From an uncultured Bacteroidota bacterium (GTDB taxonomy: Bacteria; Bacteroidota; Bacteroidia; 2-12-FULL-35-15): 64,000 nucleotides of DNA. The stretch is taken from positions 67,929 through 131,928 of the forward strand of contig CAINDA010000065.1 in the NCBI GenBank assembly GCA_903847205.1, read 5' to 3'. A model generated the notes under the pieces. The model did no database searches. It worked only from the letters and a program-made list of their open reading frames with translations, and was not told the origin of the DNA. Every line of letters starts with the position of its first letter. Positions within the stretch are counted from its first letter, which is position 1. The position numbers and the translations under genes are program-made. Positions 20,012-52,887 of the stretch are shown here, piece by piece.

Positions 20012-20051
20012 TTTTAATCAGGGTTTAAGCCCGATCAAGCCCTGATTAAAA
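20012..20051. terminator. Hairpin downstream of the T9SS cargo gene
   Basis: A 12-bp perfect inverted repeat TTTTAATCAGGG / CCCTGATTAAAA has a 16-nt loop containing a GGG...CCC inner stem. It lies ~100 nt after the stop with only a weak T-tract. Confidence 0.35.
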
Positions 20052-20296: not shown

Positions 20297-21118
20297 TTGA
20301 TTATGAAAGAAAATAATACCTGGGCGGTTTTACTTTGCGGCGGTTATGGAAGCCGGATGGGGGCCCTAACTAAAACAATTCCAAAACCCCTTATTAAAAT
20401 CCATAACCAGCCGATACTCTGGTATATATTAATGACGCTGCATAAACACGGGATTAAAAATTTAATATTTCCATTAGGTTATAAGGGTGCAATGCTGGAA
20501 AAATACATTAAAAAAAATTTTAAGGATAAAGATTTTAAAATGCATTTTATTGATACAGGTGTTGATTCGACAATTGCAAAACGGCTTGGTAAAATTTCAA
20601 GTGTTATTCCCGAAAATGCCGACTTTCTGTTACTCAACAGCGATACTATTTTTGATTTTGATATTAATGCCATGCTCAGATTACACAGAAGCAAAAAGGC
20701 ATTAATTACCCTCTCTTCTGTTGAAATAATATCTGCATGGGGATTAATACATACTCGAAAAGGGGCGCTTGCCGCTTTTTCAAGAGAAAGAAAAGTGCAT
20801 TACCTAGCTTCAAAAGAAGATGCCGAACTCAAAGGGTATATTTATTCTGGGATTGGATTTATTAATAAAAACGCCTTGAAATATATTGATTTAGAAACCT
20901 GCTACGATTTTGAGCAGGATTTATATTCGAAAATAATAAAAATGAAACGTGCTGCTCATTTCGAAATTGACGGAAGCTGGTTTGCTATTGATACTCCAAA
21001 GGATATTGAAATAATTCATCAGCTGATCGGCGATAAAAGCAACAGGGGCGTAAAAGTTCAGGCAATCAAAAAAAAATTAAGCGTAGCCAGTCCCGCTGTA
21101 AAAAAAAATAAAAAATAA
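20297..21118 (+). CDS. Sugar-1-phosphate nucleotidyltransferase, glucose-1-phosphate cytidylyltransferase (RfbF)-like
   Basis: WAVLLCGGYGSRMG...KPLIKIHNQPILWYILMTLHKHGIKNLIFPLGYKGAMLEKYI parallels the RfbF blocks GGxGTRL...KPKPMVEIGGKPILWHIMK..HGIKDFII.CGYKG. The Lys-rich C-terminal tail is unusual. Confidence 0.65.
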   Translation: MIMKENNTWAVLLCGGYGSRMGALTKTIPKPLIKIHNQPILWYILMTLHKHGIKNLIFPLGYKGAMLEKYIKKNFKDKDFKMHFIDTGVDSTIAKRLGKISSVIPENADFLLLNSDTIFDFDINAMLRLHRSKKALITLSSVEIISAWGLIHTRKGALAAFSRERKVHYLASKEDAELKGYIYSGIGFINKNALKYIDLETCYDFEQDLYSKIIKMKRAAHFEIDGSWFAIDTPKDIEIIHQLIGDKSNRGVKVQAIKKKLSVASPAVKKNKK

Positions 21119-21182
21119 AACCGGCCTTTTTTTATTTTCATTTGAACAAAAAAAAATTAAACTTTGAAAGACATTTCTTGCA

Positions 21183-22313
21183 ATGGATGCTAAAAAATCA
21201 CTTATTTCACGCTACTTATATGAATCGCCATATGTTAAAGACATACAAAAATTCAAAGAAGACATTATTCACAAAAGAGTTATTCCACATCAGGTGGAAG
21301 TACAGCCCGGGCCTTTAGGTAAAAATATATGCTGGCTTAACTGTCCTTATTGTTATGGAAAATCCGCAATAAACTCAACCGAGCGCCTTTCCATCGAAAG
21401 ATATATTGAAGTTTTAAAAAATATTACTGATGGCGGCTGCAAGAAATTTATTTTTGCAGGATGGGCCACCGATCCGCTGTATTATAAACATATTGATGAT
21501 TTGGTTCAGACCGTTGTTGAACGCGACAGCGTTATCGGTTTTAACACACGTGCTATTGACGTAAGCGATAGATTAGTAGAGCTTGTATCGACCCCGTCAC
21601 TGGCCAAGACCAGCTATATGAGTATCAGCGTAAATGCTGGTAATAATGAGAATTACAATAAAGTTAATGCTGCCAGAGGCAAAGCTAAACTGTATGACAG
21701 AGTGCTCAAAAACGTCACCAGCATTGTTACTCATAAGAAAAAAAATAATGCATCGCTCGATATAAGTGTTTCTTATCTGATAAATCAATATACGAACTCA
21801 AAAGAAGAGATAATAAAATTTATTACTGATTTTAAAAATGCAGGCGCTGACCTTATTCGCTTTTCATGCCCGCAGATTCCAAGAGGAGATGTTCCAGGTG
21901 AAAACCCTTTCATACCAACACAAATTGAATATCAGGATTATATTAATGAGTTGACACAGATTATTGAAAGCTTCAGCGATGAAAGCTGCAAAGTAATTGT
22001 TGTGAAGAGTGACGATAAATTTATACAAGCCCGCACAACACCCTGTTTCGCCAGATTTATTTATCCTACCATCGGCTATGATGGCTGGCTGTACCACTGT
22101 TCTCAGTCATCAGGCTCTAACTTCCGCAGTCAGGCTTTGGGAAATCTTGCAACAGATAATTTCTGGGATCTTTTATACGATTATGATGCAAATAATTTAG
22201 ATAATTATTTTTCCTCCTGCTCAAAAAAGATGGAAAACAATAATTGCAGGTGCGATAGAAAAGAACATACCGTTAACAGCCTGATCAAGGACAACGGCTT
22301 TTTTAATAAATAG
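21183..22313 (+). CDS. Radical SAM enzyme of unknown specificity (no cobalamin-binding domain)
   Basis: The CX3CX2C motif is at residues 50-57 (NICWLNCPYCYG). The protein is 376 aa. Additional C-terminal cysteines (YHCSQ..., SCSKKMENNNCRCDRKEH) may bind an auxiliary cluster. It sits inside a nucleotide-sugar operon. Confidence 0.65.
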   Translation: MDAKKSLISRYLYESPYVKDIQKFKEDIIHKRVIPHQVEVQPGPLGKNICWLNCPYCYGKSAINSTERLSIERYIEVLKNITDGGCKKFIFAGWATDPLYYKHIDDLVQTVVERDSVIGFNTRAIDVSDRLVELVSTPSLAKTSYMSISVNAGNNENYNKVNAARGKAKLYDRVLKNVTSIVTHKKKNNASLDISVSYLINQYTNSKEEIIKFITDFKNAGADLIRFSCPQIPRGDVPGENPFIPTQIEYQDYINELTQIIESFSDESCKVIVVKSDDKFIQARTTPCFARFIYPTIGYDGWLYHCSQSSGSNFRSQALGNLATDNFWDLLYDYDANNLDNYFSSCSKKMENNNCRCDRKEHTVNSLIKDNGFFNK

Positions 22314-22348
22314 AGTTTTTCATTTATGAAACAGCAAAATTTTCATCG

Positions 22349-23284
22349 ATGAAAGGCATAGGAGAACAAGGTAATTCATTAAAAGTAGCAATACTCGGAG
22401 CCGGCGGAATCGGCAAAGTGCATGCTCGAATTTTTCATTCGCTGGGTGCAGAGATATATGCAATTTTGGGCAGCAGTACCAAAACAGCATCTGAATCTTC
22501 AAATGATTTAAAACAATCCTTCGGATTTAAACCTAAAGCTTTTGCAAATATTGAGGAGCTTTTGGCAGAGCCTATTGATGCAGTATGCATATGTACACCG
22601 CCTCATTTACATGTTGAACATACCTTAGCTGCTTTTAATAAAGGATTTGCAGTTTTCTGCGAAAAGCCGCTTTTCTGGAATGATAAAATGTCTAAAACTG
22701 ACATGCTGTTAAAACTCGATCAACTAAAATCTCACCCCAGCCGGCGTTTTATGATGAACGCTCCTAATGCATTTTTCTTAGAGGGACTTAATAACAGGAT
22801 AAATGAACCAGGTAAAATTAAATCCTTTAAATTTAGTTTTCATACAAATGGAAATTACAAAGGCAGAGAAATAGGAGTTGATTTACTTACTCATGGATTA
22901 TCGCTGATATATAAACTTTTTGGTCTGCGAAACCTAAGTTTATTTAAGTCCCAGACGGCTGATAACAAATATTCCTGTTCTTTCAGATTCGGCAATTGCA
23001 AAGTAGAATTTGATTTTATGGAAGATCTCAATGGATCTAAATTATTTTTGATTGATATTGACGGACATGTTTTTACCCGCGGACAGGAAGGTTTTGGGGC
23101 TGAGTATAATGTATTTCTTCTTGACTCAAGAACAAATGAAAAAATAAAAATAACTGACCCTTTTCAGCAATCCATTAGTAATTTTTTAGATTATTGTAAA
23201 AGCGGGTCACCCATTGGTCACGATAAATTTGAGGAGGCTGAAGTTATTATGAAAATTATGATTCAAAATTTATTAGTTAGTTGA
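22349..23284 (+). CDS. Gfo/Idh/MocA family oxidoreductase
   Basis: VAILGAGGIGKVHARIFHSLGAEIYAILG Rossmann N-terminus in a 311-aa protein. Confidence 0.65.
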   Translation: MKGIGEQGNSLKVAILGAGGIGKVHARIFHSLGAEIYAILGSSTKTASESSNDLKQSFGFKPKAFANIEELLAEPIDAVCICTPPHLHVEHTLAAFNKGFAVFCEKPLFWNDKMSKTDMLLKLDQLKSHPSRRFMMNAPNAFFLEGLNNRINEPGKIKSFKFSFHTNGNYKGREIGVDLLTHGLSLIYKLFGLRNLSLFKSQTADNKYSCSFRFGNCKVEFDFMEDLNGSKLFLIDIDGHVFTRGQEGFGAEYNVFLLDSRTNEKIKITDPFQQSISNFLDYCKSGSPIGHDKFEEAEVIMKIMIQNLLVS

Positions 23285-23361
23285 AGCAGGGCTTTGTAAA
23301 ATAAAAACAAAAATTTCAAAAACAAAATACACTGGAAATACGAATTAATTAATCTCTTTAA

Positions 23362-24405
23362 ATGAATATACTTATAACTGGCAACCTTGGTTATGTAGGA
23401 CCTAACCTGATTAAATATTTAAAAAAGAATTATCCTGCTGATAAACTTTTCGGTTTTGATATCGGATACTTTAGCAACTGTGTTACAACTCCCTTCAGAA
23501 TGCCTGAAACAATGCTGGAAGCGCAGTACTTTGGCGATGTAAGAAATTTTTCGGAGCACCTGCTCAAAGGGATAGATGCTGTAATTCACTTAGCTGCTAT
23601 TTCAAATGACCCGATGAGCAGCCAGTTTGAAGAAATCACTTATGCCATTAACCACAAAGCAAGTATTGATATTGCAAAAAAAGCAAAGAATGCAGGTGTA
23701 AAAAGTTTTGTATTCGCTTCTAGCTGCAGTGTATATGGCTTTGCAGCCGATGGCGCACGTGTTGAATCATCTGACCTTAATCCGCTAACAGCTTATGCAA
23801 AATCTAAAGTCCTTACAGAAGAGGATTTACAGCCTTTAGCGGATGATAACTTTAAAGTTACCTGCCTGCGTTTTGCCACAGCCTGCGGTATGAGTGACCG
23901 TTTACGTTTAGATCTTGTACTCAATGATTTTGCTGCATCAGCAATTGCAAATAAAAAAATCTCTATACTCAGCGACGGCACGCCATGGCGTCCGCTCATC
24001 AATACGCTTGATATGGCAAGAGCAATGGGCTGGTCTGTAAATAGAGAAACCTCGAAAGGAGGAAATTTTTTACTTATGAATGTAGGCAGCAACGTTTGGA
24101 ACTACCAGGTAAAAGAAATTGCAGGATTTGTAAAAGAGCAATTTCCTGAGGTAGAAATTAGCATCAATCCAAATGCGCAGCCTGATAAACGGTCATACCG
24201 TGTGAATTTCGATTTCTTTAATTCTTTAGCGCCTGATTTTACTCCTAAAATCACTATACAGCAGAGCATTGCTGATTTACTTAATGGATTAAATGCAATT
24301 AAGTTTAATGATGCAGATTTCAGGCAGTCGAATTTAATCCGCCTCAATATGATCAACAGTCTGAAAACAAATAATTTTATTGACGATAATATTAATTGGG
24401 TATAA
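23362..24405 (+). CDS. Extended-SDR NAD-dependent sugar epimerase/dehydratase (candidate NDP-hexose 4,6-dehydratase)
   Basis: MNILITGNLGYVGPNLIKYL glycine-rich N-terminus. It also has IHLAAISND, FASSCSVYG and a YAKSK catalytic YxxxK. Length is 347 aa. Confidence 0.65.
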   Translation: MNILITGNLGYVGPNLIKYLKKNYPADKLFGFDIGYFSNCVTTPFRMPETMLEAQYFGDVRNFSEHLLKGIDAVIHLAAISNDPMSSQFEEITYAINHKASIDIAKKAKNAGVKSFVFASSCSVYGFAADGARVESSDLNPLTAYAKSKVLTEEDLQPLADDNFKVTCLRFATACGMSDRLRLDLVLNDFAASAIANKKISILSDGTPWRPLINTLDMARAMGWSVNRETSKGGNFLLMNVGSNVWNYQVKEIAGFVKEQFPEVEISINPNAQPDKRSYRVNFDFFNSLAPDFTPKITIQQSIADLLNGLNAIKFNDADFRQSNLIRLNMINSLKTNNFIDDNINWV

Positions 24406-24408
24406 TCT

Positions 24409-24960
24409 ATGGACTTTATTAAAACACCCTTTGCTGGTTTATTCTTAATTCAGGCAAAACCAATTAAAGATGACAGAGGTTTGTTTGGCAGGACATTTTG
24501 TAAAAAAGAATTTGCTGAAATTAATTTCACAAAAGATTTTGTTCAATTTAACCATTCATTGACTTTAAAAAAAGGTACCGTCAGAGGGCTGCATTTTCAA
24601 CTTCCGCCCTATTCCGAAACAAAATTAATCAGATGTGTTCAAGGAAAAATTTATGATACGGCAGTTGATTTAAGAAAAAATTCGCCCACATTTTTGCAGC
24701 ATTTCGACACAGAGCTTAGTGCTGAAAGCATGATGTCTATATTAATTCCAGAAGGTTTTGCTCACGGCTATCAAACACTGGAAGACAATTCTGCTTTTAT
24801 CTATCACCATACACAATTTTATACACCAGGCTCCGAATCAGGGATAAGGTATGACGATCCTTTACTGAAAATAAAGTGGCCTCTGCCGATTGTAAATGTA
24901 AGTGAAAAAGACAAAAGCCAAAACTTATTAGAAACTAATTTTAAAGGAATAGAACTATGA
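24409..24960 (+). CDS. dTDP/CDP-4-dehydro-6-deoxyhexose 3,5-epimerase (RmlC-like cupin)
   Basis: GLFLIQAKPIKDDRGLFGRTF, RGLHFQ, KLIRCVQGKIYDTAVDLRKNSPTF and EGFAHGYQTL are RmlC-family blocks. Length is 183 aa. Confidence 0.7.
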   Translation: MDFIKTPFAGLFLIQAKPIKDDRGLFGRTFCKKEFAEINFTKDFVQFNHSLTLKKGTVRGLHFQLPPYSETKLIRCVQGKIYDTAVDLRKNSPTFLQHFDTELSAESMMSILIPEGFAHGYQTLEDNSAFIYHHTQFYTPGSESGIRYDDPLLKIKWPLPIVNVSEKDKSQNLLETNFKGIEL

Positions 24961-26183
24961 ACTGCAGGTTTTGTAAAAATGAGTTGAAACATGTTTTTAT
25001 TGATTTAGGAAATTCTCCTCCATCAAATTCTTTCTTAACGCCCGCTCAATTAAATGTGCCGGAAAGCTTTTTCCCTTTAAAAATTTTCGTCTGCGAAAAA
25101 TGTTTTTTAGTACAGGTAGATGAATATAAAAAAGCTGCCGAAATTTTTGACAGTGAGTATGCCTATTTTTCTTCCGTTTCAAGGAGCTGGCTTGAACACT
25201 CAAAAAAATATACCGAAAAAATGATCTCCGAATTCGGGATTAATTACCAATCACAGGTAATTGAAATTGCTTCAAATGATGGCTATCTGCTTCAATATTT
25301 TAAAGAAAAAGGAATACCTGTTTTGGGAATAGAACCAACAGAATCAACGGCAAACGCAGCCAAAGCAAAAGGGATTGAATCAATAGGAGAATTTTTTGGT
25401 GAGCGATTAGCAAGCCAGCTCAGCAATGAAGGCAGAAAAGCCGATTTACTTTTAGGAAATAATGTATTAGCGCATGTTCCGGACATTAATGATTTTGTTA
25501 AAGGCTTACAAATTGCTTTAAAAGCGGATGGAATAATTACAATGGAATTTCCTCATTTGCTTCAATTAGTTAAGAACAATCAGTTCGATACAATTTACCA
25601 CGAACATTTTTCGTATTTATCTTTTACAACGGTGAAAAGAATTTTTGAAAAACATAATCTTGAAATGTTCCATGTAGAAGAACTGCCTACACACGGCGGT
25701 TCATTAAGAATTTTTGCCAAACAGAAAACATCCGCTTTAAACCCTGTAAGAAGCACTGTAAATGCATTGCTTGTAAAAGAAGATCAGGCTGGAATAAATG
25801 GTCTGGAATTTTATAAAGGTTTTGATAAGAATGCCGCAAAAGTTAAACTTGATTTTCTTGAGTTTTTGATACATGCTAAAAAGGAAGGCAAAAAAATTGC
25901 AGCTTACGGCGCAGCAGCAAAAGGTAGCACCATGTTAAACTTCTGCGGAATTAAAAATGACTGGATAGAATATGTAGTTGACGGCGCAGCCAGCAAGCAG
26001 GGAAAATATATGCCTGCCAGCCACATACCAATTGTTAATGAAGTAAAAATAAAAGAACACAAACCCGACTATATAATTATTCTGCCCTGGAATATTAAGG
26101 AAGAAATAATGAATCAATTAAGTTATGTAAAAGGATGGGGATGCATCTTTGTAACTGTCATACCTGATTTGCAGAAATTTTAA
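24957..26183 (+). CDS. NDP-hexose C-methyltransferase (TylC3/EryBIII-like)
   Basis: An N-terminal Cys4 zinc ribbon (CRFCKN...CEKCFLVQ) precedes a class I SAM-MTase core (VIEIASNDGYLL, LGIEP). The C-terminus has the C-methyltransferase domain signature (IAAYGAAAKGSTMLNF...YIIILPWNIKEEI). Length is 408 aa. Confidence 0.7.
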   Translation: MNCRFCKNELKHVFIDLGNSPPSNSFLTPAQLNVPESFFPLKIFVCEKCFLVQVDEYKKAAEIFDSEYAYFSSVSRSWLEHSKKYTEKMISEFGINYQSQVIEIASNDGYLLQYFKEKGIPVLGIEPTESTANAAKAKGIESIGEFFGERLASQLSNEGRKADLLLGNNVLAHVPDINDFVKGLQIALKADGIITMEFPHLLQLVKNNQFDTIYHEHFSYLSFTTVKRIFEKHNLEMFHVEELPTHGGSLRIFAKQKTSALNPVRSTVNALLVKEDQAGINGLEFYKGFDKNAAKVKLDFLEFLIHAKKEGKKIAAYGAAAKGSTMLNFCGIKNDWIEYVVDGAASKQGKYMPASHIPIVNEVKIKEHKPDYIIILPWNIKEEIMNQLSYVKGWGCIFVTVIPDLQKF

Positions 26184-26333
26184 AAAAAAAATTGTACAAG
26201 ATATATGGTTTTGCATAGAACCTTGTTCAGCTTAAATAAGCAAGTTTATAACACATTAGTAATTAGATGATAATTATCTTTTCAGAAATTCAAGTACTAT
26301 TTAATAATTTTCATTATTAATCTATTTAATTAT

Positions 26334-27314
26334 ATGAGCAAAAAAAACAAATCCACACCAATAGAAGAAGAAGCTGCCGCATTTGACAAAAGAATGACCG
26401 AAAGAAGCAGTGCCGGCTTCATTCCTGATTTAAGGGATGCTGTAAAATGCGATTATTTTTATAAAAGTTTTTTCCGTGACCCTTATTTTATGAAATTGTA
26501 CCAGGGGCAGATGACTGATTTGTTCGTCAACGGCCTTGAAAAACATAAAGGAAAAAAATTAACAATTTTAGATGTGGGATGCGGGCCAGGGCTGAGTACC
26601 CTGGAAATAGCAAGAAACGGGCACAATGTTACCGCAATTGACATTTCAGAAAAATCTATTGAACTCGCAAAAAAAGCGCTTGCCAATAATCGATACAAGA
26701 AAAATTTCGGCTTGTTAAATTATCAGGTATTACCTTTTGAAGAAGTGAAGGGAAAATTTGACGCAATTATATTTTCTGGTGCACTGCATCATTTTCCAAA
26801 CCTCAAGGATGTGGTAAAAAAATCCGTAACCCTTCTTAATAAAGATGGCATTTTACTTTGCTATGAACCTTGGCATGAAAAATGGCGAAAACAAGATGCC
26901 GCTCAAGTGGCACTGTTCAGAATGATTTTGTCCATCACAGGATTTTGGTATGAAAAAAATCTTTTTAAAAACACCAAAAATAAGCCGAAAATGTTTGATG
27001 AATATGTTGATGATATTCACCTTGAATATGTTTCGGAGAAAGATAAAAATGAACCTGACGGACAGTCTCCAAATGATAATGCTGCCAGCGGGGATGAAAT
27101 TATAAAATGCCTGAATAAATATTTTGTTCAGAAAGAATTAAAATCTGGATTTTCTTTTATTTACAGATTCTTGGGAGGCATGAGAGGGTCAGATGAAATC
27201 TTGCACCGCCTGGCCGATTTGTTCACAGTTTATGATCAATATGCTGTTGAAAATGGATGGATGAATTCAAATGCATTTTTTTACATCGGAACAAAAAACA
27301 ATATTCAGAAATAA
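26334..27314 (+). CDS. Class I SAM-dependent methyltransferase
   Basis: ILDVGCGPGLSTLEIARNGHNVTAIDISEKSIELAKK is SAM-binding motif I. Length is 326 aa. Confidence 0.65.
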   Translation: MSKKNKSTPIEEEAAAFDKRMTERSSAGFIPDLRDAVKCDYFYKSFFRDPYFMKLYQGQMTDLFVNGLEKHKGKKLTILDVGCGPGLSTLEIARNGHNVTAIDISEKSIELAKKALANNRYKKNFGLLNYQVLPFEEVKGKFDAIIFSGALHHFPNLKDVVKKSVTLLNKDGILLCYEPWHEKWRKQDAAQVALFRMILSITGFWYEKNLFKNTKNKPKMFDEYVDDIHLEYVSEKDKNEPDGQSPNDNAASGDEIIKCLNKYFVQKELKSGFSFIYRFLGGMRGSDEILHRLADLFTVYDQYAVENGWMNSNAFFYIGTKNNIQK

Positions 27315-28218
27315 AATAATTCCGATCGTTTCATCTTACCTATTTTACAGAAATTTTAAAATAATAATTTTGAAAATACTAGTTACCGGAACGTCAGGAT
27401 TTGTAGGCAGATATGTTTTAAGTGAATTGTTAAAATATCAGCATTCTATTGTGATTGCAGCTGCAGATATTTCAAAACAAAATTTTCCAAAACAAAATGA
27501 TACCGTTGAAATAAAAGAATTCAATTTAGATTTTGTGAATAGCTACGGAAATCTGATGGACTATTTTAATAATCCGGATATGCTTATTCACATTGCATGG
27601 AAAGGCCTTCCGAATTTTAACGCACAGATACATGAAGAGCAATTAACTAGTCACTGTGATTTCATAAAAAAATTAGTTAAGAACGGCATAAAAAAAATTA
27701 CTGTTACCGGAACCTGTTTAGAATATGGATTACAGGAAGGCTGCCTGATGGAAACAATGGATATTAAACCAAGCCTAACCTACCCTATTGCAAAAGCCGA
27801 ACTATGCAATTTTATTAGTAATTTACAAGAGCTTCATGATTTTGAATTTAACTGGCTTCGATTATTTTATATGTATGGCGAAGGCCAAAATCCAAAATCA
27901 ATTCTTTCGCAGTTAGAAAATGCAATTAAAAACAATGACAAAATTTTTAATATGTCCAAAGGAGATCAGCAAAGAGATTATCTCCCAATAGAAAAAGTTG
28001 CTGAATATATTGTAAAAACGGCTTTGCAGAACAAGATTAAAGGTATTGTAAATTGCTGTTCAGGAAAACCAATAACAATCCTTAAATTAGTTCAGGATTA
28101 TTTAGATGAACATAAAGCAGATATAAAATTAAATTTAGGTTATTTCCCTTATCCCGATTATGAACCATTTGCCTTTTACGGTGATGCAAAAAAATTAAAT
28201 GCATCAATAGGTAATTAA
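27271..28218 (+). CDS. NAD-dependent epimerase/dehydratase family protein (candidate 4-ketoreductase)
   Basis: Rossmann start LKILVTGTSGFVGRYVL. The true start is probably the in-frame TTG at 27370, which would avoid a 44-nt overlap with the upstream gene. A YPIAKAE YxxxK-like motif is present. Confidence 0.6.
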   Translation: MHFFTSEQKTIFRNKIIPIVSSYLFYRNFKIIILKILVTGTSGFVGRYVLSELLKYQHSIVIAAADISKQNFPKQNDTVEIKEFNLDFVNSYGNLMDYFNNPDMLIHIAWKGLPNFNAQIHEEQLTSHCDFIKKLVKNGIKKITVTGTCLEYGLQEGCLMETMDIKPSLTYPIAKAELCNFISNLQELHDFEFNWLRLFYMYGEGQNPKSILSQLENAIKNNDKIFNMSKGDQQRDYLPIEKVAEYIVKTALQNKIKGIVNCCSGKPITILKLVQDYLDEHKADIKLNLGYFPYPDYEPFAFYGDAKKLNASIGN

Positions 28219-28229
28219 ATTAAACAAAA

Positions 28230-29306
28230 ATGGAAGACGAATTAAAAGCCTTATCAAAAGGAAACAAAGTTATTTTCAAGCAAAATTCTGTTCCTCTTTT
28301 TCAAAATAAAGTTTACCGTACAAAAGAGGAAGCACTCAATGCCCCTACAGGCGAAGTACAGCTTGCTGAATCTGCACAAACAGGTTTTATTTTTAATAAA
28401 ACATTTGATAACAGTTTGATGGACTATGATGCCGACTATCATAATGAACAATCGAATTCGCCGATATTTAAAGAACATCTGCAATATGTTTTTGATCTTA
28501 TTAAGAGATATGATCTTACTGGCAAAAAAGTAGTAGAAATAGGATGCGGGAAAGCTCACTTTTTTAATCTTATGAAAGAAAACGGAGTTAACTGCATTGG
28601 GTTTGATCCTGCCTATGAAGGCAATGACACAGCCATTATAAAAGATTATTTCAGTGACAAATATGACATTAACGGCGATTTAATTATACTCAGGCATACA
28701 CTTGAACACATAGAAAATCCACATTTATTTATTTCCGACATCGCAAAAGCAAACAAGTACAGAGGATATATTTTTATTGAAGTGCCTACTTTTGACTGGA
28801 TAAATAAAAAACAGGCTTTTTGGGATGTTTTTTATGAACATTGTAATTATTTTACTGAAACAAGCCTGGGCTCTATGTTTAATAAAGCTGAAACAGGGAG
28901 CTTTTTCGGGGGACAGTATATTTACTGCTATTCAGCCCTGAAAGAATTAAAAACTACTATTGAAAAGAAATCTGAAGGCTCAATTGAAAATATATCATTC
29001 GATTCAAGCGTTTTAAAATGGGGGAAATTTCTTGACGAGAAAAAAAATATCGCAGTGTGGGGTGCAGGTGCAAAAGGCTCAACTTTTTTAAATTTACTGG
29101 ATCAGAAAAAAGAAAAAATAAAATTTGTTATTGATATTAATCCCGAAAAGCAAAACAAATTTATTGCCCGCACATGTCATCCAATATATTCTCCAAAAGC
29201 GCTTGAAGGCAGCGGTATTGAAAACATTTTAATAATGAATGAAAATTATATTGACGAAATAAAAGCTGCAGTAAATAATCCAAACATTAATTTTTATTGT
29301 TTATAG
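28230..29306 (+). CDS. SAM-dependent methyltransferase with C-methyltransferase C-terminal domain (second C-MT-like gene, lacks zinc ribbon)
   Basis: SAM motif VVEIGCGKAHFFNLMKENGVNCIGFDP. The C-terminus IAVWGAGAKGSTFLNLL...FVIDINPEKQNKF aligns with the C-terminus of the 24957 gene product (IAAYGAAAKGSTMLNF...). Confidence 0.55.
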   Translation: MEDELKALSKGNKVIFKQNSVPLFQNKVYRTKEEALNAPTGEVQLAESAQTGFIFNKTFDNSLMDYDADYHNEQSNSPIFKEHLQYVFDLIKRYDLTGKKVVEIGCGKAHFFNLMKENGVNCIGFDPAYEGNDTAIIKDYFSDKYDINGDLIILRHTLEHIENPHLFISDIAKANKYRGYIFIEVPTFDWINKKQAFWDVFYEHCNYFTETSLGSMFNKAETGSFFGGQYIYCYSALKELKTTIEKKSEGSIENISFDSSVLKWGKFLDEKKNIAVWGAGAKGSTFLNLLDQKKEKIKFVIDINPEKQNKFIARTCHPIYSPKALEGSGIENILIMNENYIDEIKAAVNNPNINFYCL

Positions 29307-29310
29307 ATTC

Positions 29311-30348
29311 ATGCTGAAAAAAATAACACTGATAACAATATCAAGAAACCGGCATCCCTATCTCGAGAGAATTATTGATTATTATGCGAACAGCGCCATT
29401 CAAGTGCTTATTGCAGATGACAGTAAAGAAAAATATTCAAAAGTCCTGCCTCCCAATACTGCGTATTACCAATATTCAGGAGTGCCTTATTTATTCAGGT
29501 TTGATGATATAATTCAAAAAGTAAAAACTCCTTACGTTGTATTTTGTGCCGATGACGATTTCATTGTTCCTGAAGGAATTTCAAAATGCGTTTCATTCTT
29601 AGATACTAATCCCGATTATAACTCTGCTCACGGGCAATATGTTTTTTTTTATCACAGCAAAAATAAACTGTTTTACACACCAGGTTATTTAGTTACAGTT
29701 GGGTGTGATATTAATGAAGATACAGCAATGGGCCGGACTGAAAGGTATAAAAAACTCCCTATTCAATTATGCTATTGTGTTCACAGAACAGAAAATTTGA
29801 AGCTGACATTTAACACTTTAAAAAATTCTGTAAATAATTTAGGCCTGTTTGAAACTATAATAGGTATGAAAACTTTAATTGAGGGGAAACATAAAGTATT
29901 ACCTGTTTTTTATTCTGCGCGGCAAAGTTTATACAGCTCCGCAGGCAGCGGCGCCAGCATTGATGTTTGCGCTTCAAAGGATGAATATAAAAATGAATAT
30001 AATTCCTATCTTGTTGAAATGGCTTCCCTGCTCTCAAAAAAAGATAATATCCCTTTTGATGAAGCATTTGCTTTTTTTAAACAATTGATGGTTGAATTTG
30101 TTGATTATAGATATATTTCAAAACCATCTTCAAAAAAAATGATGATGAAGTTTATAAAAAAAACAATTCCTTTTGGCCTGCGTAAAGGAGCACGTCATTA
30201 TTTATTACTTCTTCAGGAACAAAACAAGAAAAAGAATAATATTCAATTATCTCAAAAAATAAATAGTTTTCCTTTTATCACAGGCAGTCCTGAAAATAAA
30301 GAACTTCAAAAAATAGAGAACTGTATTTTAAAATATAATGTAAAGTAA
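29311..30348 (+). CDS. Putative GT-A fold glycosyltransferase (GT2-like)
   Basis: The N-terminus ITLITISRNRHPYLERIIDYY...VLIADDS resembles GT2 (IPTYNR...DDGS). FCADDDF is a possible DxD motif. Length is 345 aa. The match is weak. Confidence 0.4.
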   Translation: MLKKITLITISRNRHPYLERIIDYYANSAIQVLIADDSKEKYSKVLPPNTAYYQYSGVPYLFRFDDIIQKVKTPYVVFCADDDFIVPEGISKCVSFLDTNPDYNSAHGQYVFFYHSKNKLFYTPGYLVTVGCDINEDTAMGRTERYKKLPIQLCYCVHRTENLKLTFNTLKNSVNNLGLFETIIGMKTLIEGKHKVLPVFYSARQSLYSSAGSGASIDVCASKDEYKNEYNSYLVEMASLLSKKDNIPFDEAFAFFKQLMVEFVDYRYISKPSSKKMMMKFIKKTIPFGLRKGARHYLLLLQEQNKKKNNIQLSQKINSFPFITGSPENKELQKIENCILKYNVK

Positions 30349-30395
30349 ATTCTTTAATTTCGGGTTCATAACAACCTCTAAAATCAAGCATCTAA

Positions 30396-31877
30396 TTGGG
30401 AATTATAGAAAAGCAGGCAACCAAAAACTTAATATACTCTTATCTTGGAGCAGGGCTTGGTTTTGTTACTTTAATGTGGTCGTCGCATTTATTAAGTCCG
30501 GATGAAAACGGATTAACGCGCATTTTACTTTCAATCACAGCTCTCTTTTCTCAATTTGCAAGTTTAGGATTCAATGCAGTAACCTCTCGTTTTTTTCCTT
30601 ATTTTAGAAATAAAGAAAAAGGCCATCATGGCTACCTGTATTATGGCATCATCACCACTTTAGCCGGATTTACGCTATGTTACATTACATTCTATTTTTT
30701 CAAAGATCAAATAATTGCCGATAATCAACAAAAATCAAAGTTATTTGCCGACTATCTTTTTTACTTAATGCCTCTTACCTTCTTCACTTTATTTTTTGGT
30801 TTATTCGATTACTATTTAAGAGCCTGTTATAGATCAGTTATCGGCTCCTCTTCAAAAGATTTAACCCAGCGCATTTTAATTCTGGCAGTCCTATTTTTAT
30901 ATTTTTTAAAAATAATCAACTTTAACATTTTTGTTTTTTTATATGTTGCAGCAACTTGTATTCCTACTTTAATTCTTCTCTATTATATTGTAAAACTTGG
31001 CGAATGGCATGTAAAACCTGTTAGAGGATTTGTGAGCAAAGAGCTTAGAAAAGAAATGATAAACCTTAGTTTATATGCAATAATAATAGGTAGTTCCGGA
31101 ATTTTAATGTCGAGTATTGATGTAATAATGGTGAATCAAAAATTGGGCCTCAAACAAACTGGTATTTACGGCATTGCGTTTTATTTCGGCAGCATCATAA
31201 TTATTCCATCACGCTCATTACTGCGGATTGCGATGGGGATTGTTGCTGATGCATTTAAAAAAAATGATCTGGAAGAAATCAGCCGTTTGTATAAAAAATC
31301 CTGCAACAGCCAGCTGACAATCGGTTTATTACTTTTTATCGGAATATGGTGTAATATAAATAACATTATGGCTTTATTGCCTCCGGAATATGCAGGAGGT
31401 AAAAACGTAATACTGTTTATCAGTTTAGGCAATTTAATAGATATGGGAACCGGCTTTAATTACATCATAATGATGACTTCAAAACATTACAGGTTTGATG
31501 GAATATTTATGATCATTATTTTATTTTTAACAATATTTTTAAACTATCTTTTGATTCCCATCTACGGAATCACAGGATCAGCAATAGCAACAGCAACAAC
31601 CATTGCAGCTTATAATATTATGAGATGGCTGTTTTTACTTTTCAAATTTAAAATGCAGCCTTACGATTTAAATAATGTAAAAATTATTGTTATCGCCGCG
31701 ATAGCTTTTTTACCCGGGTATTTTATGCCGTACTTAAATTTTCTGGTGATTGATATAGCCGTGAGAAGCGGGATTGTAGGAGGATTATTTATTCTCTTAC
31801 TTTTAAAAACGGAAGCAGCCCCCGAAATAAATATCAAAATCAGAAAAAACCTGAAACGATTTTCAATTCATATTTAG
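30396..31877 (+). CDS. Wzx-like oligosaccharide flippase (MOP superfamily polysaccharide biosynthesis protein)
   Basis: A 493-aa protein with ~12-14 TM helices. GLTRILLSITALFSQFASLGFNAVTSRFFPYF is a Wzx-type N-terminal block. The predicted start is TTG. It is a clear paralog of the gene at 59764..61233. Confidence 0.65.
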   Translation: MGIIEKQATKNLIYSYLGAGLGFVTLMWSSHLLSPDENGLTRILLSITALFSQFASLGFNAVTSRFFPYFRNKEKGHHGYLYYGIITTLAGFTLCYITFYFFKDQIIADNQQKSKLFADYLFYLMPLTFFTLFFGLFDYYLRACYRSVIGSSSKDLTQRILILAVLFLYFLKIINFNIFVFLYVAATCIPTLILLYYIVKLGEWHVKPVRGFVSKELRKEMINLSLYAIIIGSSGILMSSIDVIMVNQKLGLKQTGIYGIAFYFGSIIIIPSRSLLRIAMGIVADAFKKNDLEEISRLYKKSCNSQLTIGLLLFIGIWCNINNIMALLPPEYAGGKNVILFISLGNLIDMGTGFNYIIMMTSKHYRFDGIFMIIILFLTIFLNYLLIPIYGITGSAIATATTIAAYNIMRWLFLLFKFKMQPYDLNNVKIIVIAAIAFLPGYFMPYLNFLVIDIAVRSGIVGGLFILLLLKTEAAPEINIKIRKNLKRFSIHI

Positions 31878-31920: not shown

Positions 31921-31953
31921 AGACCTGACAGGTTTTAAAAACCTATCAGGTCT
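31921..31953. repeat. 33-bp palindromic element, copy B (intergenic, likely bidirectional terminator)
   Basis: AGACCTGACAGG-TTTTAAAAA-CCTATCAGGTCT has the same arms and spacer length as the copy at 2566-2598. It lies between the convergent flippase (+) and YfhO-like (-) genes and is flanked by A and T runs. Confidence 0.6.
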
Positions 31954-32040: not shown

Positions 32041-34563
32041 CTATTGTTCTTTTTTTCTAAATGAAAGAAAAATCGAAGCCCCTGCAGCCAAAAACAATAA
32101 AATACAAGAGGCCAGTGAAATTTTTTCTCCAAGGAAATATTTTTTGGGCTCAAATTTGAATTCAATCTGATGCTTCCCTGCCGGAATGCGCATTGCACGC
32201 AATACATAGTCGGCTCCAAAGTGAGGTTTTGCAACACCGTCAATGTAAGCATCCCAGCCTTTATTATAGTAGATTTCAGAAAAAACTGCCAGTTGCTCAG
32301 TACCCGCATTTGATTCGTATTTAAGGTCATTAGGTTTACATTCCAGTAGTTTAATGGAAGCAGAACCGTCTGGTTTTGGAGAGAAGCCATCCAGTTCATT
32401 GTGGTATCGTTCATCAACAACTGCAGTATTTCCAGGGTTTACCTCTCCTATTGTTTTAATTTCTTCGTCCGCATTTTTAACAACTTTCACTTCCTTAACA
32501 AACCAGGCATTTCCCAGTGCATAACGGTTCTGCAGAGGAGATGCATCCGGATTGTAAATAATATAACGTGCGTTCAGCATATTCAATACCCCCTGCTTTG
32601 CAAAAACAGCCCGTAACGACGAATCATTTGGGTTTGATTTCAGTGTTGTCATTATATCCTGAATACTATTTTGAATATGCATATCTATCAAATCCTGGTA
32701 CCGTCTCAATTTTGCTGCATGGTAGCCGCCAATTGATTTATGATAATACGATGTACCTGATTCATTAAAAGTATTTACAGCAATATTCAACACACGGTAA
32801 TCCGGATCTTTGTCCTCTAAAATTTCCTGACTGGCTTTTGTTAAAGGAAAAGGAACAGCTGCCTCTTGTTTTGTTTTAAAATTTTTATCATTTACATATC
32901 CTTTATCAATCTGAACTAAATCAACAAAAATTAACAATCCTAAAACTACAGTCAAAATAGTTTTATTAATTATTGATTTAAAAAACAGCCAGATCGCGCC
33001 AGCGGCAAGCGTTATAAAAATAAAACTTCGCAATGCATCTGATTTAAATAATGTAATACGGGCAATTTCAACATTGTCAATAAATTTTTGAGCAATTACT
33101 GCACCGTTGCTCTTTAAAATCTGATTGTACATTTTATCATACTCGCCGTCGCCGAAAAATGTGGTTAAGCCCGGCATAATGTAATAAATCAATGACAAGC
33201 CGCCAGTTATTGCGAATGAAATAAAGAAAGCATTTTGAACACTTATTTCCTTTTTGATAAAAGCAATTTTGATTTTATGTTTAAAAAAATCAGGGTTCTT
33301 TAATATTTTATTTATTGCCAATATCGCCAAAAGCGGAATTGTAAATTCTGCCACTACCAATATCATAGAAACTGCTCTGAATTTATTATAAGCAGGAAAG
33401 TGATCTAAAAAAAATTCTGTCAAAGGCATAAAATTTTTGCCCCACGACATCATCAGCGAAAACAGCGTACCAGTTAACAGCACCCATTTCATCCGCCCCT
33501 CAACAATAAATAATCCGAAAACAAATAAAAATATAATAATGGCTCCTGCGTAAGGCGACATAGTAAACGGCTGATCGCCCCAATATTGCGACATGCCTCC
33601 GATACTTTCACGCATATCAGGATCAACATTTTTCAAGGCGCTTTTATTTTCACCTACACTTATTGATGAAGACCGCCCTTTAAAACCCGGAATCATCAGT
33701 GTCATCGTTTCAGAAACACCCATGCTCCATTGTGTTGCATAATCTTTATCCAAACCAGACGTTTTATTTCCTTTATCAGACGACAATTCAGAAGCACCTC
33801 GTATTGTTACTGAAGCGTAATCAGCAGTGTTCCATAAATTACTGATATTGCATCCAATAGCCAAAACACCCGCAATGGCGAATATGCCGATACTTTTTAA
33901 AATTGCTTTATACTCTTTTTGTTTAATGCGCGCCACCCATTCAAATGCTATATAAATACCTAAAAACAAAAACAAATAATAAGTTATCTGAACGTGATTC
34001 CAATATAATTCCATTCCTAAAAAAAGCGCTGTAAGCGCGCCTCCAAGCAGATATTTACCTCTGTTAACAAGTATAACCCCCGCAAATACCAATGGCATGT
34101 ATGCAATAGCAAATGCTTTTGTAATATGCCCGGCATCAATTATTATAAAGAAATATGCAGAAAATGCAAACGCCACGGCCCCGAGAATACTAAGCCATGG
34201 ATCAATCTTAAGCACAAGCAGCAGAATAAAGAAACCTAATAAATAAGAAAAAACAATATTGGCCGGAAAAGGAAGCCACAATGTAGAAACGCCGCGAAAA
34301 TACAACAGCAGATTATCCGGATGCCGAATTGATATTTGATATGCAGGCATACCCCCGAACATTGAATTTGTCCATAAAGGTTCTTCATGATACTGATCTC
34401 TGAAATCATTTGATTCTTTTGCCATTCCGGCGCTTGAAACCATATCGCTCTGTATAATTACTTTCCCTTTTAATACAGGTGTAAAATATCCTAGAGTCAA
34501 AACAATAAAAATTACTATTGCTGCAATAATCGGAACAAGTGCTTTAAGATTGATATTTTTCAT
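32041..34563 (-). CDS. Large polytopic membrane protein, YfhO-like (putative glycan/lipid glycosyltransferase family)
   Basis: 840 aa with ~14 TM helices in the N-terminal two-thirds and a soluble C-terminal domain plus a final TM. The overall architecture and N-terminus (MKNINLKALVPIIAAIV...) resemble the YfhO family. No motif-level confirmation. Confidence 0.45.
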   Translation of the reverse strand: MKNINLKALVPIIAAIVIFIVLTLGYFTPVLKGKVIIQSDMVSSAGMAKESNDFRDQYHEEPLWTNSMFGGMPAYQISIRHPDNLLLYFRGVSTLWLPFPANIVFSYLLGFFILLLVLKIDPWLSILGAVAFAFSAYFFIIIDAGHITKAFAIAYMPLVFAGVILVNRGKYLLGGALTALFLGMELYWNHVQITYYLFLFLGIYIAFEWVARIKQKEYKAILKSIGIFAIAGVLAIGCNISNLWNTADYASVTIRGASELSSDKGNKTSGLDKDYATQWSMGVSETMTLMIPGFKGRSSSISVGENKSALKNVDPDMRESIGGMSQYWGDQPFTMSPYAGAIIIFLFVFGLFIVEGRMKWVLLTGTLFSLMMSWGKNFMPLTEFFLDHFPAYNKFRAVSMILVVAEFTIPLLAILAINKILKNPDFFKHKIKIAFIKKEISVQNAFFISFAITGGLSLIYYIMPGLTTFFGDGEYDKMYNQILKSNGAVIAQKFIDNVEIARITLFKSDALRSFIFITLAAGAIWLFFKSIINKTILTVVLGLLIFVDLVQIDKGYVNDKNFKTKQEAAVPFPLTKASQEILEDKDPDYRVLNIAVNTFNESGTSYYHKSIGGYHAAKLRRYQDLIDMHIQNSIQDIMTTLKSNPNDSSLRAVFAKQGVLNMLNARYIIYNPDASPLQNRYALGNAWFVKEVKVVKNADEEIKTIGEVNPGNTAVVDERYHNELDGFSPKPDGSASIKLLECKPNDLKYESNAGTEQLAVFSEIYYNKGWDAYIDGVAKPHFGADYVLRAMRIPAGKHQIEFKFEPKKYFLGEKISLASCILLFLAAGASIFLSFRKKEQ

Positions 34564-46004: not shown

Positions 46005-46636
46005 GAGTGCTTGTAATCAGCGATATTCATGGAAATTTACCTGCTTTAGAATACGTTCTTAAGGAGGAGCAATCTGCTGATTTGGTTATTTCATTGGGTG
46101 ATGTTGTAAATTACGGACCTTGGAGTAATGAATGTGTTGATTTAATGGATTCATTAAAAAGTAAAGTTTTGATTTTAGGAAATCACGAAGAGGCATTTCT
46201 TGATGGGCTGTATCAGGGAAGTAATTTAACAGCAAAAGCCTTTTTTGAAATATGTTACCCAAGCTTTAATCGAAAAGACCAAGTCAGTAAGTACATAAAA
46301 ATGTATTCTTTCAAAGATGCAGTTTTTACTCATACATTAAACAATAGCTATATTTTCAATGACTCAGAAATTCAAATTGAGAAAGATACTTTTATCGGCC
46401 ATTCGCACCGGATATTTTTAAAAGATGTAAACGGTTATAGATTGGTAAACGTTGGCAGTGTAGGACAAAACCGTATAAATATCGATGAGCTCAATTATGT
46501 AATCTGGGATACTGAAAATAATTCTGTCGAATTAATGAGAAAAGAATTTAATGTCGATCAGCTTATTCAAGAAATGAAAATTAAAAACTATCCCGAAATA
46601 TGCCTCAATTATATTTTATCTAAACGCATTAAATAA
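46001..46636 (+). CDS. Metallophosphoesterase (calcineurin-like, YfcE-type)
   Basis: MRVLVISDIHGNLPALEYV (DxHG), SLGDVVNYGP (GD motif), GNHE and GHSH form the motif series. Length is 211 aa. Confidence 0.65.
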   Translation: MRVLVISDIHGNLPALEYVLKEEQSADLVISLGDVVNYGPWSNECVDLMDSLKSKVLILGNHEEAFLDGLYQGSNLTAKAFFEICYPSFNRKDQVSKYIKMYSFKDAVFTHTLNNSYIFNDSEIQIEKDTFIGHSHRIFLKDVNGYRLVNVGSVGQNRINIDELNYVIWDTENNSVELMRKEFNVDQLIQEMKIKNYPEICLNYILSKRIK

Positions 46637-46638
46637 TA

Positions 46639-50132: not shown

Positions 50133-50214
50133 TTAGTTAACAATTTGCCTCAAAATTGAGGTTTGTAATTCTTGAAATTATCTATCCTAGATTTGAATTG
50201 ATATTTAATCAAAA

Positions 50215-52878: not shown

Positions 52879-52887
52879 ATTTTATTC

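Follow-up and report, generated by a model that had tools for sequence, protein, structure and literature searches.

A conserved nucleotidyltransferase, radical SAM enzyme and oxidoreductase module in a candidate C-methyl sugar operon of an uncultured Bacteroidota bacterium

We analysed a 64,000-nucleotide stretch of DNA from an uncultured Bacteroidota bacterium (assembly GCA_903847205.1, contig CAINDA010000065.1, positions 67,929 to 131,928; hereafter the window, numbered from its first letter) and report that positions 20303-31877 are one operon of a Bacteroidota surface-glycan locus, predicted to make and export an unusual methyl-branched sugar. The eleven plus-strand open reading frames (ORFs) of the operon are called g1 to g11, in order. 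Its new element is the front end g1-g2-g3, predicted to encode a sugar-1-phosphate nucleotidyltransferase, a radical S-adenosylmethionine (SAM) enzyme scoring far under the thresholds of curated families, DesII included, and an NAD(P)-dependent oxidoreductase. These three genes are coupled physically and by synteny in other genomes, and are frequently coupled to a C-methyltransferase gene. The best explanation, which we consider probably right if only by a little, is that g1-g3 carry out a radical modification of a nucleoside diphosphate (NDP)-hexose, whose product would next be oxidised at C4, epimerised at C3/C5, C-methylated and reduced.

The radical SAM gene g2 (21183..22313, + strand) matches PF04055 with 49.1 bits against a cutoff of 29.5 and has a C-terminal four-cysteine region resembling SPASM and twitch domains. 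Its SAM-cluster motif is CxxxCxxC, as CWLNCPYC, and an alignment of 22 sequences shows seven invariant cysteines, namely C50, C54 and C57 of the SAM cluster together with C288, C306, C355 and C357, the last two of which sit in a conserved C(R/K)CDRKEH motif. The presence of a radical SAM gene in the locus, claimed by an earlier reading made from the letters and their translations (the sequence-only reading), is borne out by the above-cutoff Pfam match and by the invariance of CxxxCxxC. PF13186 (SPASM) matches weakly in 3 of the 22 family members (best E 0.0013) and more clearly in distant relatives. On the NCBIfam models g2 reaches no family, and its score on the DesII model TIGR04426 is 31.8 bits, where the cutoff is 450. 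In a database search we obtained 358 relatives, mostly 45-55% identical and from very different organisms. When 1.84 billion cluster representatives were searched exhaustively with a profile, 68 proteins fell below 1e-30 and 373 below 1e-10; judged by sequence, the family is compact. A tblastn search with g2 gave no match in the PLSDB plasmids or the INPHARED phages.

The AlphaFold (AF2) model of g2 is confident, with a predicted local distance difference test score (pLDDT) of 89.3, and a Foldseek search with it against the PDB returned the SPASM/twitch enzymes SuiB, SkfB and anSME as well as DesII and BlsE, with DesII giving the top query-normalised template modelling (TM) scores (0.63-0.65). 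In a profile search of PDB sequences, SkfB was matched at E 1.7e-6 and DesII at E 2.8e-5, the latter over the whole radical SAM core. Among sugar-acting enzymes, DesII thus appears to be the nearest to g2 by both modelled fold and profile. We also considered g2 as a viperin-like nucleotide dehydratase and rejected this, viperins being structurally much weaker matches (query-normalised TM-score 0.46-0.50) than DesII. Two distant relatives (P0153 and P0208) combine TIR, radical SAM and SPASM domains, suggesting a defence-system context, and a third (P0240) combines radical SAM and SPASM domains with a DegT sugar aminotransferase, a fusion that would fit a keto-sugar product of g2-like chemistry.

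The partner genes of g2 belong to families of sugar metabolism. The first, g1 (20303..21118, +), is a predicted sugar-1-phosphate nucleotidyltransferase (PF00483, 71 bits); the third, g3 (22349..23284, +), is a predicted Gfo/Idh/MocA NAD(P)-dependent oxidoreductase, as had been read from the sequence (PF01408, 74 bits). In the g3 family the motifs EKP and DLLxH are invariant in 34 of 34 sequences; we take EKP and the DxxxH within the second motif to supply the catalytic Lys and Asp/His known from Gfo/Idh/MocA oxidoreductases such as inositol dehydrogenase. Among the best 120 of the 358 g2 relatives, six (P0011, P0051, P0063, P0069, P0070 and P0072) are NTP_transferase-Radical_SAM fusions of about 640 amino acids, collinear with g1 and g2. 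The N-terminal halves of P0011 and P0063 are 55% and 49% identical to g1, and their C-terminal halves 63% and 48% identical to g2.

For synteny we compiled 36 loci from a one-genome-per-species scan of GTDB species representatives, to which the genome of the window does not belong, and 8 from contig look-ups, 37 of them non-redundant, and compared the window proteins with the ORFs of each locus by BLASTP. The carriers are Pelagibacteraceae (SAR11), Nitrospina/Nitrospinaceae, Myxococcales, Rhodospirillaceae, Rhodobacteraceae, Motiliproteus and other Gammaproteobacteria, Neomarinimicrobiota and Bacteroidota. The triad g1-g2-g3 is present in nearly all of the 37 loci, which represent at least six different phyla or classes: a Gfo gene adjoins the radical SAM gene in about 33, and the g1-type gene stands by itself in 27 and is part of a fusion in at least six. 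In 24 loci a zinc-domain C-methyltransferase of the TylC3/MtmC type is encoded no more than 10 kb from the radical SAM gene; a DegT aminotransferase occurs in 10, an RmlC gene in 11 and a short-chain dehydrogenase/reductase (SDR) of the g8 type in 9. The methyltransferase genes g7 and g9 are essentially confined to the window, g7 being rare and g9 absent elsewhere. Because the radical SAM enzyme and the nucleotidyltransferase form a single protein in several organisms, and because its gene is syntenic with g1 and the Gfo gene across phyla, we regard it as integral to the sugar pathway and no bystander, and its earlier assignment to the pathway is upheld. The same gene order returns in unrelated genomes, so the gene set of the operon is not a chance arrangement.

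Three arrangements of the triad can be told apart. In architecture A (L003, L013, L036, L030, L034, the SAR11 loci, L042 and L044) it is followed by an equivalog CDP-glucose 4,6-dehydratase (CDP, cytidine diphosphate; TIGR02622 356-477 bits, cutoff 278.45), RmlC, a C-methyltransferase and a reductase or aminotransferase. The nearest relatives of the window, L042 and L044, belong here. L042, with g1, g2, g3 and g6 counterparts 69%, 80%, 65% and 68% identical, continues with an aminotransferase and an N-formyltransferase. The g1-g3 counterparts of L044 are 77%, 75% and 63% identical. In architecture B, found in the window and 11 other loci, the triad stands with a g4-type SDR. In architecture C, mostly from Nitrospina, a fused triad is accompanied by a PgfS/ArnC-like polyprenyl-phosphate glycosyltransferase and by no other sugar-modifying gene on the contig. 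Since these contigs hold only the triad and a glycosyltransferase, the triad alone appears to suffice for a finished donor sugar. In related loci (L044:1398-3036 and L044:7442-8965; L001:1-1362) we also noticed, beside the triad, split transketolase-like genes, for which a two-carbon branch transfer is possible, and B12-binding radical SAM enzymes; together they hint at further branched-sugar chemistry in this family of loci.

The nucleotide used by g1 can be approached from its own scores and from its neighbours in other genomes. The best hidden Markov model (HMM) is that of RfbF, the glucose-1-phosphate cytidylyltransferase, yet at 104 bits on TIGR02623 g1 does not reach the equivalog threshold of 300.25; HddC follows with 85.5 bits and the archaeal GlmU type with 83. 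The best PDB matches are RfbF (1tzf, 76.6 bits) and GMPPB (70.8 bits), and the catalytic loop GGYGSRMG (GGxGSR) and the KPL motif are present. Homologues of the g1 type elsewhere score 84-118 bits on TIGR02623, and by sequence g1 belongs to a distinct clade, distant from RfbF. Thus the description of g1 as RfbF-like holds for the best model and the best structure match and does not extend to the score. Two Pelagibacter loci, L025 and L026 (the latter from isolate HIMB1587), hold a g1-type enzyme as well as a near-canonical RfbF (262-282 bits), alongside the radical SAM/Gfo pair, a CDP-glucose dehydratase, a C-methyltransferase and a TIGR04440-like glycosyltransferase. The g1 counterparts of L042 and L044, with 69-77% identity, adjoin an equivalog CDP-glucose 4,6-dehydratase, and no other nucleotidyltransferase is listed there. 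CDP activation is plausible because these close relatives pair g1 with such a dehydratase, and the nucleotide is probably cytidine triphosphate (CTP), giving a CDP-hexose. For CDP-glucose as the starting metabolite, architecture A offers the strongest case, if an indirect one. The activation proposed earlier therefore gains indirect support from loci of this kind, while g1 itself fails the RfbF equivalog. The accompanying remark that C-branched sugars are classically linked to deoxythymidine diphosphate (dTDP) was too strong, given the precedents of CDP-vinelose, CDP-yersiniose and UDP-apiose (UDP, uridine diphosphate).

Downstream of the triad, g4 (23362..24405, +) is a predicted extended SDR of the epimerase/C4-dehydrogenase type (PF01370, 113 bits). 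Neither g4 nor g8 matches TIGR02622 (cutoff 278.45). The g4 family has the motif SSCS(V/I)YG...YAKSK (SSCSVYG in g4), against T(T/S)DKCYEN...YSxSK in the RfbG-type proteins of related loci, and is presumably without the acid/base pair, Asp-Lys or Asp-Glu, that 4,6-dehydratases use. Its best PDB matches are 6vo6/6vo8 (72 bits, deposited as 'putative sugar-nucleotide epimerase/dehydratase'), followed by the WbgU/WbpP 4-epimerases; 6vo6 is presumably Cj1427. A CDP-tyvelose 2-epimerase was also considered, and no such entry is among the PDB matches of g4. From its motifs and matches, g4 is therefore best taken for an SDR of the Cj1427/GalE type that oxidises C4 or epimerises, and not for a 4,6-dehydratase. 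Of the 'dehydratase/epimerase' proposed earlier, the extended SDR stands and the dehydratase does not, and the 6-deoxyhexose product expected with it is not supported, there being no 4,6-dehydratase-type SDR in the cluster.

Related loci complicate the role of g4. A tblastn search of the whole window revealed no RfbG-like gene near the operon, and among the compared loci RfbG-type and g4-type SDRs never co-occur. It would be attractive to suppose that the g4-type SDR simply replaces RfbG; we downgraded this idea, as 7 of the 11 other g4-type loci have an extra, divergent S/T-D-K dehydratase-like SDR (dehydratase models give 120-186 bits). For the window and for L016, L019 and L028, all without any dehydratase-like gene, the idea still holds. 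The operon also lacks an RfbH-type dehydrase or any other DegT gene, and the E1/E3 pair, the pyridoxamine 5'-phosphate (PMP)-dependent dehydrase system of 3,6-dideoxyhexose pathways, is absent from all loci examined. Its absence had been correctly noted from the sequence: the sole DegT-family gene of the window is a LegC-family aminotransferase in a separate cluster (44820-46004). Nor are E1-type dehydrases hidden among the DegT genes of related loci, which all score like ordinary aminotransferases and under the RfbH cutoff.

The genes that follow bring the operon close to known C-methyl sugar pathways. The product of g5 (24409..24960, +) is a predicted RmlC-type NDP-4-ketohexose 3,5-epimerase, in line with the RmlC-like call made before (TIGR01221 170.8 bits, cutoff 155.75; PF00908 207 bits). 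That of g6 (24957..26183, +), a predicted NDP-hexose 3-C-methyltransferase with an N-terminal zinc domain (PF08421 84.7 bits, PF08484 199.9 bits), aligns over its full length with MtmC (4rv9, 236 bits), KijD1 (226 bits) and TcaB9 (205 bits). By sequence it is a genuine member of the TylC3/MtmC/TcaB9 family of sugar 3-C-methyltransferases, with zinc, SAM and C-terminal domains and 205-236 bits to characterised members, as the TylC3-type assignment had it. A C-branched sugar is, through this full-length similarity of g6, very likely the product of the operon, which agrees with the branched-chain sugar first proposed.

Beyond g6 the predictions become less specific. A class I SAM methyltransferase, also called as such earlier, is encoded by g7 (26334..27314, +; several class I Pfam models, 54-68 bits) and possibly O-methylates the sugar. 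The second extended SDR, g8 (27370..28218, +; PF01370 89.6 bits), was likewise rightly recognised, and homologues with 39-46% identity come after the C-methyltransferase in L003, L013 and L030; g8 is presumed to be the final 4-ketoreductase. The product of g9 (28230..29306, +) is a second C-methyltransferase-like enzyme (PF13489, Methyltransf_23, 79.5 bits; partial PF08484, 49.3 bits) that has no PF08421 zinc domain and is a remote relative (43 bits). Aligned to MtmC and TcaB9, it keeps the E-H dyad (fyEHcnyf in g9, iyhEHlsy in MtmC, ifdEHfflf in TcaB9), the histidine of LxHI and, from the nucleotide-binding C-terminal domain, the GAxAKG motif. Mutagenesis in the Holden laboratory reportedly identified the E-H pair as catalytic in TcaB9. 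For the second protein with a C-methyltransferase C-terminal domain, and the di-C-methylation drawn from it, this means that the domain is there in part, that the E-H dyad of the family is kept, and that a second C-methylation by g9 is possible.

From these parts a pathway can be proposed. We infer its nucleotide, its substrate, the type and regiochemistry of the g2/g3 reaction, the succession of reactions, and what g4, g7, g8 and g9 contribute. Sugar-acting radical SAM enzymes form an alpha-hydroxyalkyl radical, from which either a neighbouring leaving group or an electron is then lost. In the scheme that we prefer, g1 would activate a hexose-1-phosphate, probably with CTP, to a CDP-hexose, on which g2, with its cysteine set of the auxiliary-cluster type, and g3 would act as a fixed pair. 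By abstracting a ring hydrogen next to a hydroxyl, g2 would generate a radical, to be followed by loss of the adjacent hydroxyl (a diol dehydration like those of AprD4 and BlsE) or by oxidation of the carbon (as with DesII and TDP-quinovose; TDP, thymidine diphosphate), in both cases giving a keto sugar. The keto group would be reduced by g3, and the net result would most likely be deoxygenation at C3 or C2, before C4 oxidation. Oxidation at C4 by g4, with the 6-hydroxyl retained, would give a 4-keto sugar, to be epimerised at C3/C5 by g5, methylated at C3 via its 4-keto enolate by g6 and reduced at C4 by g8; further methyl groups would come from g7 (perhaps O-methylation) and g9 (perhaps a second C-methylation). 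The sugar would be transferred by g10 and the lipid-linked product flipped by g11, and a convergent 840-amino-acid YfhO-like protein might attach it. The gene order g1-g2-g3-dehydratase-RmlC-C-methyltransferase-SDR is collinear with these reactions, which is suggestive only. Nothing specific was found in favour of the radical-mediated rearrangement raised in the sequence-only reading.

Both outcomes of the radical step have precedents. DesII, starting from an alpha-hydroxyalkyl radical, removes the amino group of its natural substrate, acts as a dehydrogenase on TDP-quinovose and in part as a dehydratase on TDP-fucose (PMC11434129). With AprD4, dehydration of a diol yields a keto-deoxy sugar that the NADPH-dependent AprD3 reduces, the net effect being deoxygenation at C3' of paromamine (PMC5461906). 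A net deoxygenation is favoured because g2 always travels with an NAD(P)-dependent oxidoreductase, matching the two-step logic of AprD4/AprD3, and because the SDR and cupin enzymes of the same loci are already able to oxidise and epimerise. By analogy, were C3 deoxygenated, architecture A would amount to a radical substitute for E1/E3 in an ascarylose-like scheme with added C-methylation; were it C2, the pair would parallel the 2,3-dehydratase and Gfo-type 3-ketoreductase of mycarose-type pathways. A later C4 oxidation, C3/C5 epimerisation and C4 reduction are known in sequence from the Campylobacter jejuni heptoses, where the C4-dehydrogenase Cj1427, the C3/C5-epimerase Cj1430 and the C4-reductase Cj1428 act on GDP-heptose (GDP, guanosine diphosphate; PMC10680097).

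Several observations weigh against this pathway. DesII and BlsE resemble g2 only remotely (13-14% identity), peptide-modifying SPASM enzymes score equally well or better, and the reaction proposed for the g2 family is drawn from analogy. A route to a 3-C-methyl-6-deoxyhexose is complete without g2 and g3, so that their step is an unexplained extra. The window cluster has no dehydratase-type SDR, and a C4-oxidising role for g4 is weak in view of the extra dehydratase-like SDR in 7 of the 11 other g4-type loci. L001 carries a classical 2,3-dehydratase and Gfo reductase beside the triad, which somewhat disfavours C2 deoxygenation as its universal role. Finally, g1 is under the RfbF threshold with HddC and GMPPB scores nearly equal, and because SAR11 loci hold a near-canonical RfbF besides the g1-type enzyme, the latter may activate another sugar-phosphate or follow g2/g3.

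The alternative that survives best, though we think it unlikely, is that g2 is a radical dehydrogenase or epimerase, with g3 reducing from the other face or the keto sugar being used directly for transamination or C-methylation, and that no deoxygenation takes place. The twitch/SPASM sugar enzymes BtrN, SpeY and HygY are dehydrogenases or epimerases, which counts for this explanation. A DegT gene directly follows the radical SAM gene in several loci, SAR11 ones among them (L022, L026 and L027), and the Gfo gene in L001, and P0240 is itself fused to DegT; DesII, moreover, dehydrogenates the diol substrate TDP-quinovose with no dehydration (PMC11434129). However, the SDR and RmlC of the same loci oxidise and epimerise cheaply, and an obligatory reductase partner better matches the deoxygenation by AprD4/AprD3 (PMC5461906).

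It is more doubtful still that g2 and g3 act on a sugar phosphate before activation, with g1 as a specialised nucleotidyltransferase for the modified sugar-1-phosphate. The distinctness of the g1-type clade (84-118 bits on the RfbF model) and its coexistence with near-canonical RfbF in L025 and L026 would suit such a role, as would a GHMP anomeric-kinase-like gene ahead of g1 in L016 and L019, and the gene fusion is compatible with consecutive steps in either order. Yet the nucleotidyltransferase is N-terminal in the fusions, most loci are ordered g1-g2-g3, and DesII and BlsE, the nearest sugar-acting structural relatives of g2, take nucleotide-linked substrates. In L042 and L044, furthermore, g1 is the only candidate supplier for the adjoining CDP-glucose dehydratase.

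A slightly less probable possibility is that two sugars are made side by side, one by the triad and an ordinary branched sugar (vinelose- or evalose-like) by the SDR, RmlC, C-methyltransferase and SDR from a precursor made elsewhere. Triad-only loci in Nitrospina and a second nucleotidyltransferase in SAR11 loci agree with this, and a 3-C-methyl hexose needs neither g2 nor g3. C-methyltransferases, however, are uncommon in glycan loci, and one accompanies the triad in 24 of 37; the order of triad, dehydratase, RmlC and C-methyltransferase is contiguous and conserved across phyla, and the operon has one nucleotidyltransferase and one glycosyltransferase. Least likely, and in our view very improbable, is a GDP-heptose-type modification as in the C. 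jejuni capsule with added methylations, with an HddC-like g1, a Cj1427-like C4-dehydrogenase g4, a C3/C5 epimerase and a C4 reductase, as, despite the documented dehydrogenase, epimerase and reductase logic (PMC10680097), the 85.5 bits of g1 on HddC, the best PDB match of g4 to 6vo6 and the HddA-like kinases of L016 and L019, no GmhA or GmhB gene was found in the window, RfbF is the best HMM and PDB match of g1, and its closest relatives pair it with CDP-glucose 4,6-dehydratase equivalogs.

Transfer and export of the sugar would fall to the last two genes. The product of g10 (29311..30348, +) is a predicted GT-A-type glycosyltransferase, matching the GT-A transferase named before (TIGR04440 171.3 bits, cutoff 70), with weaker homologues in SAR11 loci, and that of g11 (30396..31877, +) a predicted Wzx-like polysaccharide flippase (PF01943 38 bits, cutoff 28.2). 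Convergent to the operon lies the gene of the 840-amino-acid membrane protein (32041..34563, - strand), weakly YfhO-like over its C-terminal 80 residues only (PF09586 27.3 bits, cutoff 28.5), which we tentatively regard as a glycan-attaching GT-C enzyme. No initiating transferase, polymerase or chain-length regulator was found near the operon, and for this reason the sugar may be a side-chain decoration and not part of a repeat unit.

The limits of the operon follow from its layout. The ORF listing bears out ten tightly spaced co-directional genes on the plus strand at 20297-30348, and all ten have significant family matches, confirming the gene families assigned to them. The unit does not end there, however: the flippase gene g11 continues it, and a hairpin with a 15-bp stem and T-runs (31921-31953), between g11 and the convergent gene, is likely a bidirectional terminator closing the operon. 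A hairpin scan of the unit found no strong terminator-like site inside it. Contrary to the several 4-nt overlaps described for the unit, the sole such overlap is that of g5/g6 (24957-24960), and elsewhere neighbouring genes are 3 to 150 nt apart: 64 nt for g1/g2, 35 for g2/g3, 77 for g3/g4, 3 for g4/g5, 150 for g6/g7, 11 for g8/g9, 4 for g9/g10 and 47 for g10/g11. An apparent 44-nt overlap of the g7 and g8 ORFs is a product of choosing the first ATG and vanishes with a g8 start at TTG 27370, which we adopt because the SDR domain match begins at ORF residue 36 and the DNA from 27370 (TTG AAA ATA CTA GTT ACC GGA) encodes MKILVTG. The g1 ORF opens at TTG 20297, with ATG 20303 the likelier start. 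A public gene call for the g1 homologue on an identical contig has 228 amino acids and a start equivalent to window position 20432; it is probably a start-site mis-call, as the GGxGSR nucleotide-binding loop would be deleted. An Rfam search of the 390-nt leader before g1 found no riboswitch or other element, and a sigma-70 promoter scan was uninformative (44 sites against 49.7 expected).

Other features of the window surround the operon. It is preceded by the gene of an 821-amino-acid FG-GAP/PKD/TIG repeat protein with a Por_Secre_tail sorting domain of the type IX secretion system (T9SS; 17442-19907, +), behind which lies a terminator-like hairpin (20014-20038); within the neighbourhood this sorting domain is the one feature that points to Bacteroidota. 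Upstream of this T9SS cargo gene are two short Gfo/Idh/MocA-like ORFs of 318 and 323 amino acids (15076-16032 and 16017-16988, both -) with a mutual overlap of 16 nt. A separate nonulosonic-acid cluster of the legionaminic-acid type occupies 44820-54623 (+), with the LegC-family aminotransferase (44820-46004, 549 bits, cutoff 420), a metallophosphoesterase, an ATP-grasp protein, an SDR, a hexapeptide acetyltransferase, NeuB, a UDP-GlcNAc 2-epimerase family gene, a CBS-domain nucleotidyltransferase and a CMP-sugar synthetase-like gene; it is interrupted by a Fib_succ_major/PKD protein. Further downstream, an SDR (57218-58297, -) has the motif STNKVYG and FGASK in place of the catalytic YxxxK (Phe for Tyr). 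As the GalE and dTDP-glucose dehydratase models score it equally, at about 85 bits, it may be a tyvelose-epimerase-like or otherwise non-canonical SDR.

Radical SAM chemistry on nucleotide sugars is known from few antibiotic pathways, namely from DesII and, on related substrates, from AprD4 and BlsE; we are not aware of any description of it in ordinary loci for cell-surface glycans. A search of the open-access literature found no paper on the triad module, although subscription journals may hold one, and we found no curated family or solved structure for it. By sequence, g5, g6 and g8 are new members of well-known enzyme families, and the novelty would lie in radical SAM modification of nucleotide sugars having moved into surface-glycan biosynthesis and been coupled to C-methylation. 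More tentatively, and with less conviction than we attach to the pathway as such, we suggest that the triad could be a new radical route for deoxygenating nucleotide-activated hexoses, a cofactor-independent alternative to PMP/E1-E3 or 2,3-dehydratases that is used in the surface glycans of abundant marine bacteria (SAR11, Nitrospina) and here feeds a doubly C-methylated sugar. If true, the conserved three-gene module would be a new entry point into rare-sugar biosynthesis. It would supply gene candidates for CDP-linked C-methyl sugars such as vinelose, and would add a determinant of surface diversity in the most abundant marine bacteria, relevant to recognition by phages and grazers.

Compared with known systems, the operon comes closest in its middle part to the mycarose (TylC3/EryBIII/MtmC), TcaB9 and KijD1 pathways: g6 has the same three-domain architecture and aligns with their C-methyltransferases over its full length. 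In mycarose-type pathways an RmlC-like epimerase and an SDR reductase accompany the C-methyltransferase, as around g6. Unlike these antibiotic pathways, it lies in a surface-glycan locus, is probably CDP- and not dTDP-linked, lacks RmlA/RmlB and a 2,3-dehydratase, and has a radical SAM/Gfo pair upstream and the zinc-domain-less paralogue g9. With DesII, the TDP-4-amino-4,6-dideoxyglucose deaminase/dehydrogenase of desosamine biosynthesis, g2 shares the radical SAM class, and DesII is its best sugar-acting match in fold and profile. Yet g2 has four extra invariant cysteines and a constant Gfo partner, and the window has neither a 4-amino substrate nor a DesI-type step. The two-enzyme logic of g2/g3 recalls AprD4/AprD3, a functional analogy only, but the substrates of AprD4/AprD3 and of BlsE are an aminoglycoside and a nucleoside, not NDP-hexoses.

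The CDP-3,6-dideoxyhexose pathway (RfbF/RfbG/E1/E3, AscE/AscF) resembles the related loci in its RfbF-like enzyme, CDP-glucose 4,6-dehydratase, RmlC-like epimerase and SDR reductase, and the order of the asc operon is comparable to theirs. It differs in that these loci have a radical SAM/Gfo pair and a C-methyltransferase and no E1/E3, and the window is without the dehydratase. Heptose modification in C. jejuni offers a 4-keto sugar that is reached with no 6-deoxygenation and then undergoes RmlC-like epimerisation and a reduction (PMC10680097). That pathway, however, uses GDP-heptose and has no radical SAM enzyme or C-methyltransferase, and the PDB match of g4 to 6vo6 is 72 bits only. A known product of a comparable kind is CDP-vinelose (CDP-6-deoxy-3-C-methyl-2-O-methyl-L-talose) of Azotobacter vinelandii, the chemistry of which has been known since the 1960s; we know of no genes assigned to it, and the one-genome-per-species scan for the triad returned no Azotobacter locus. 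Vinelose is 6-deoxy and needs no radical SAM step, and the window has no 4,6-dehydratase. Nevertheless, a CDP-activated, 3-C-methylated and O-methylated L-hexose is the type of product that g1, g5, g6, g7 and g8 could make.

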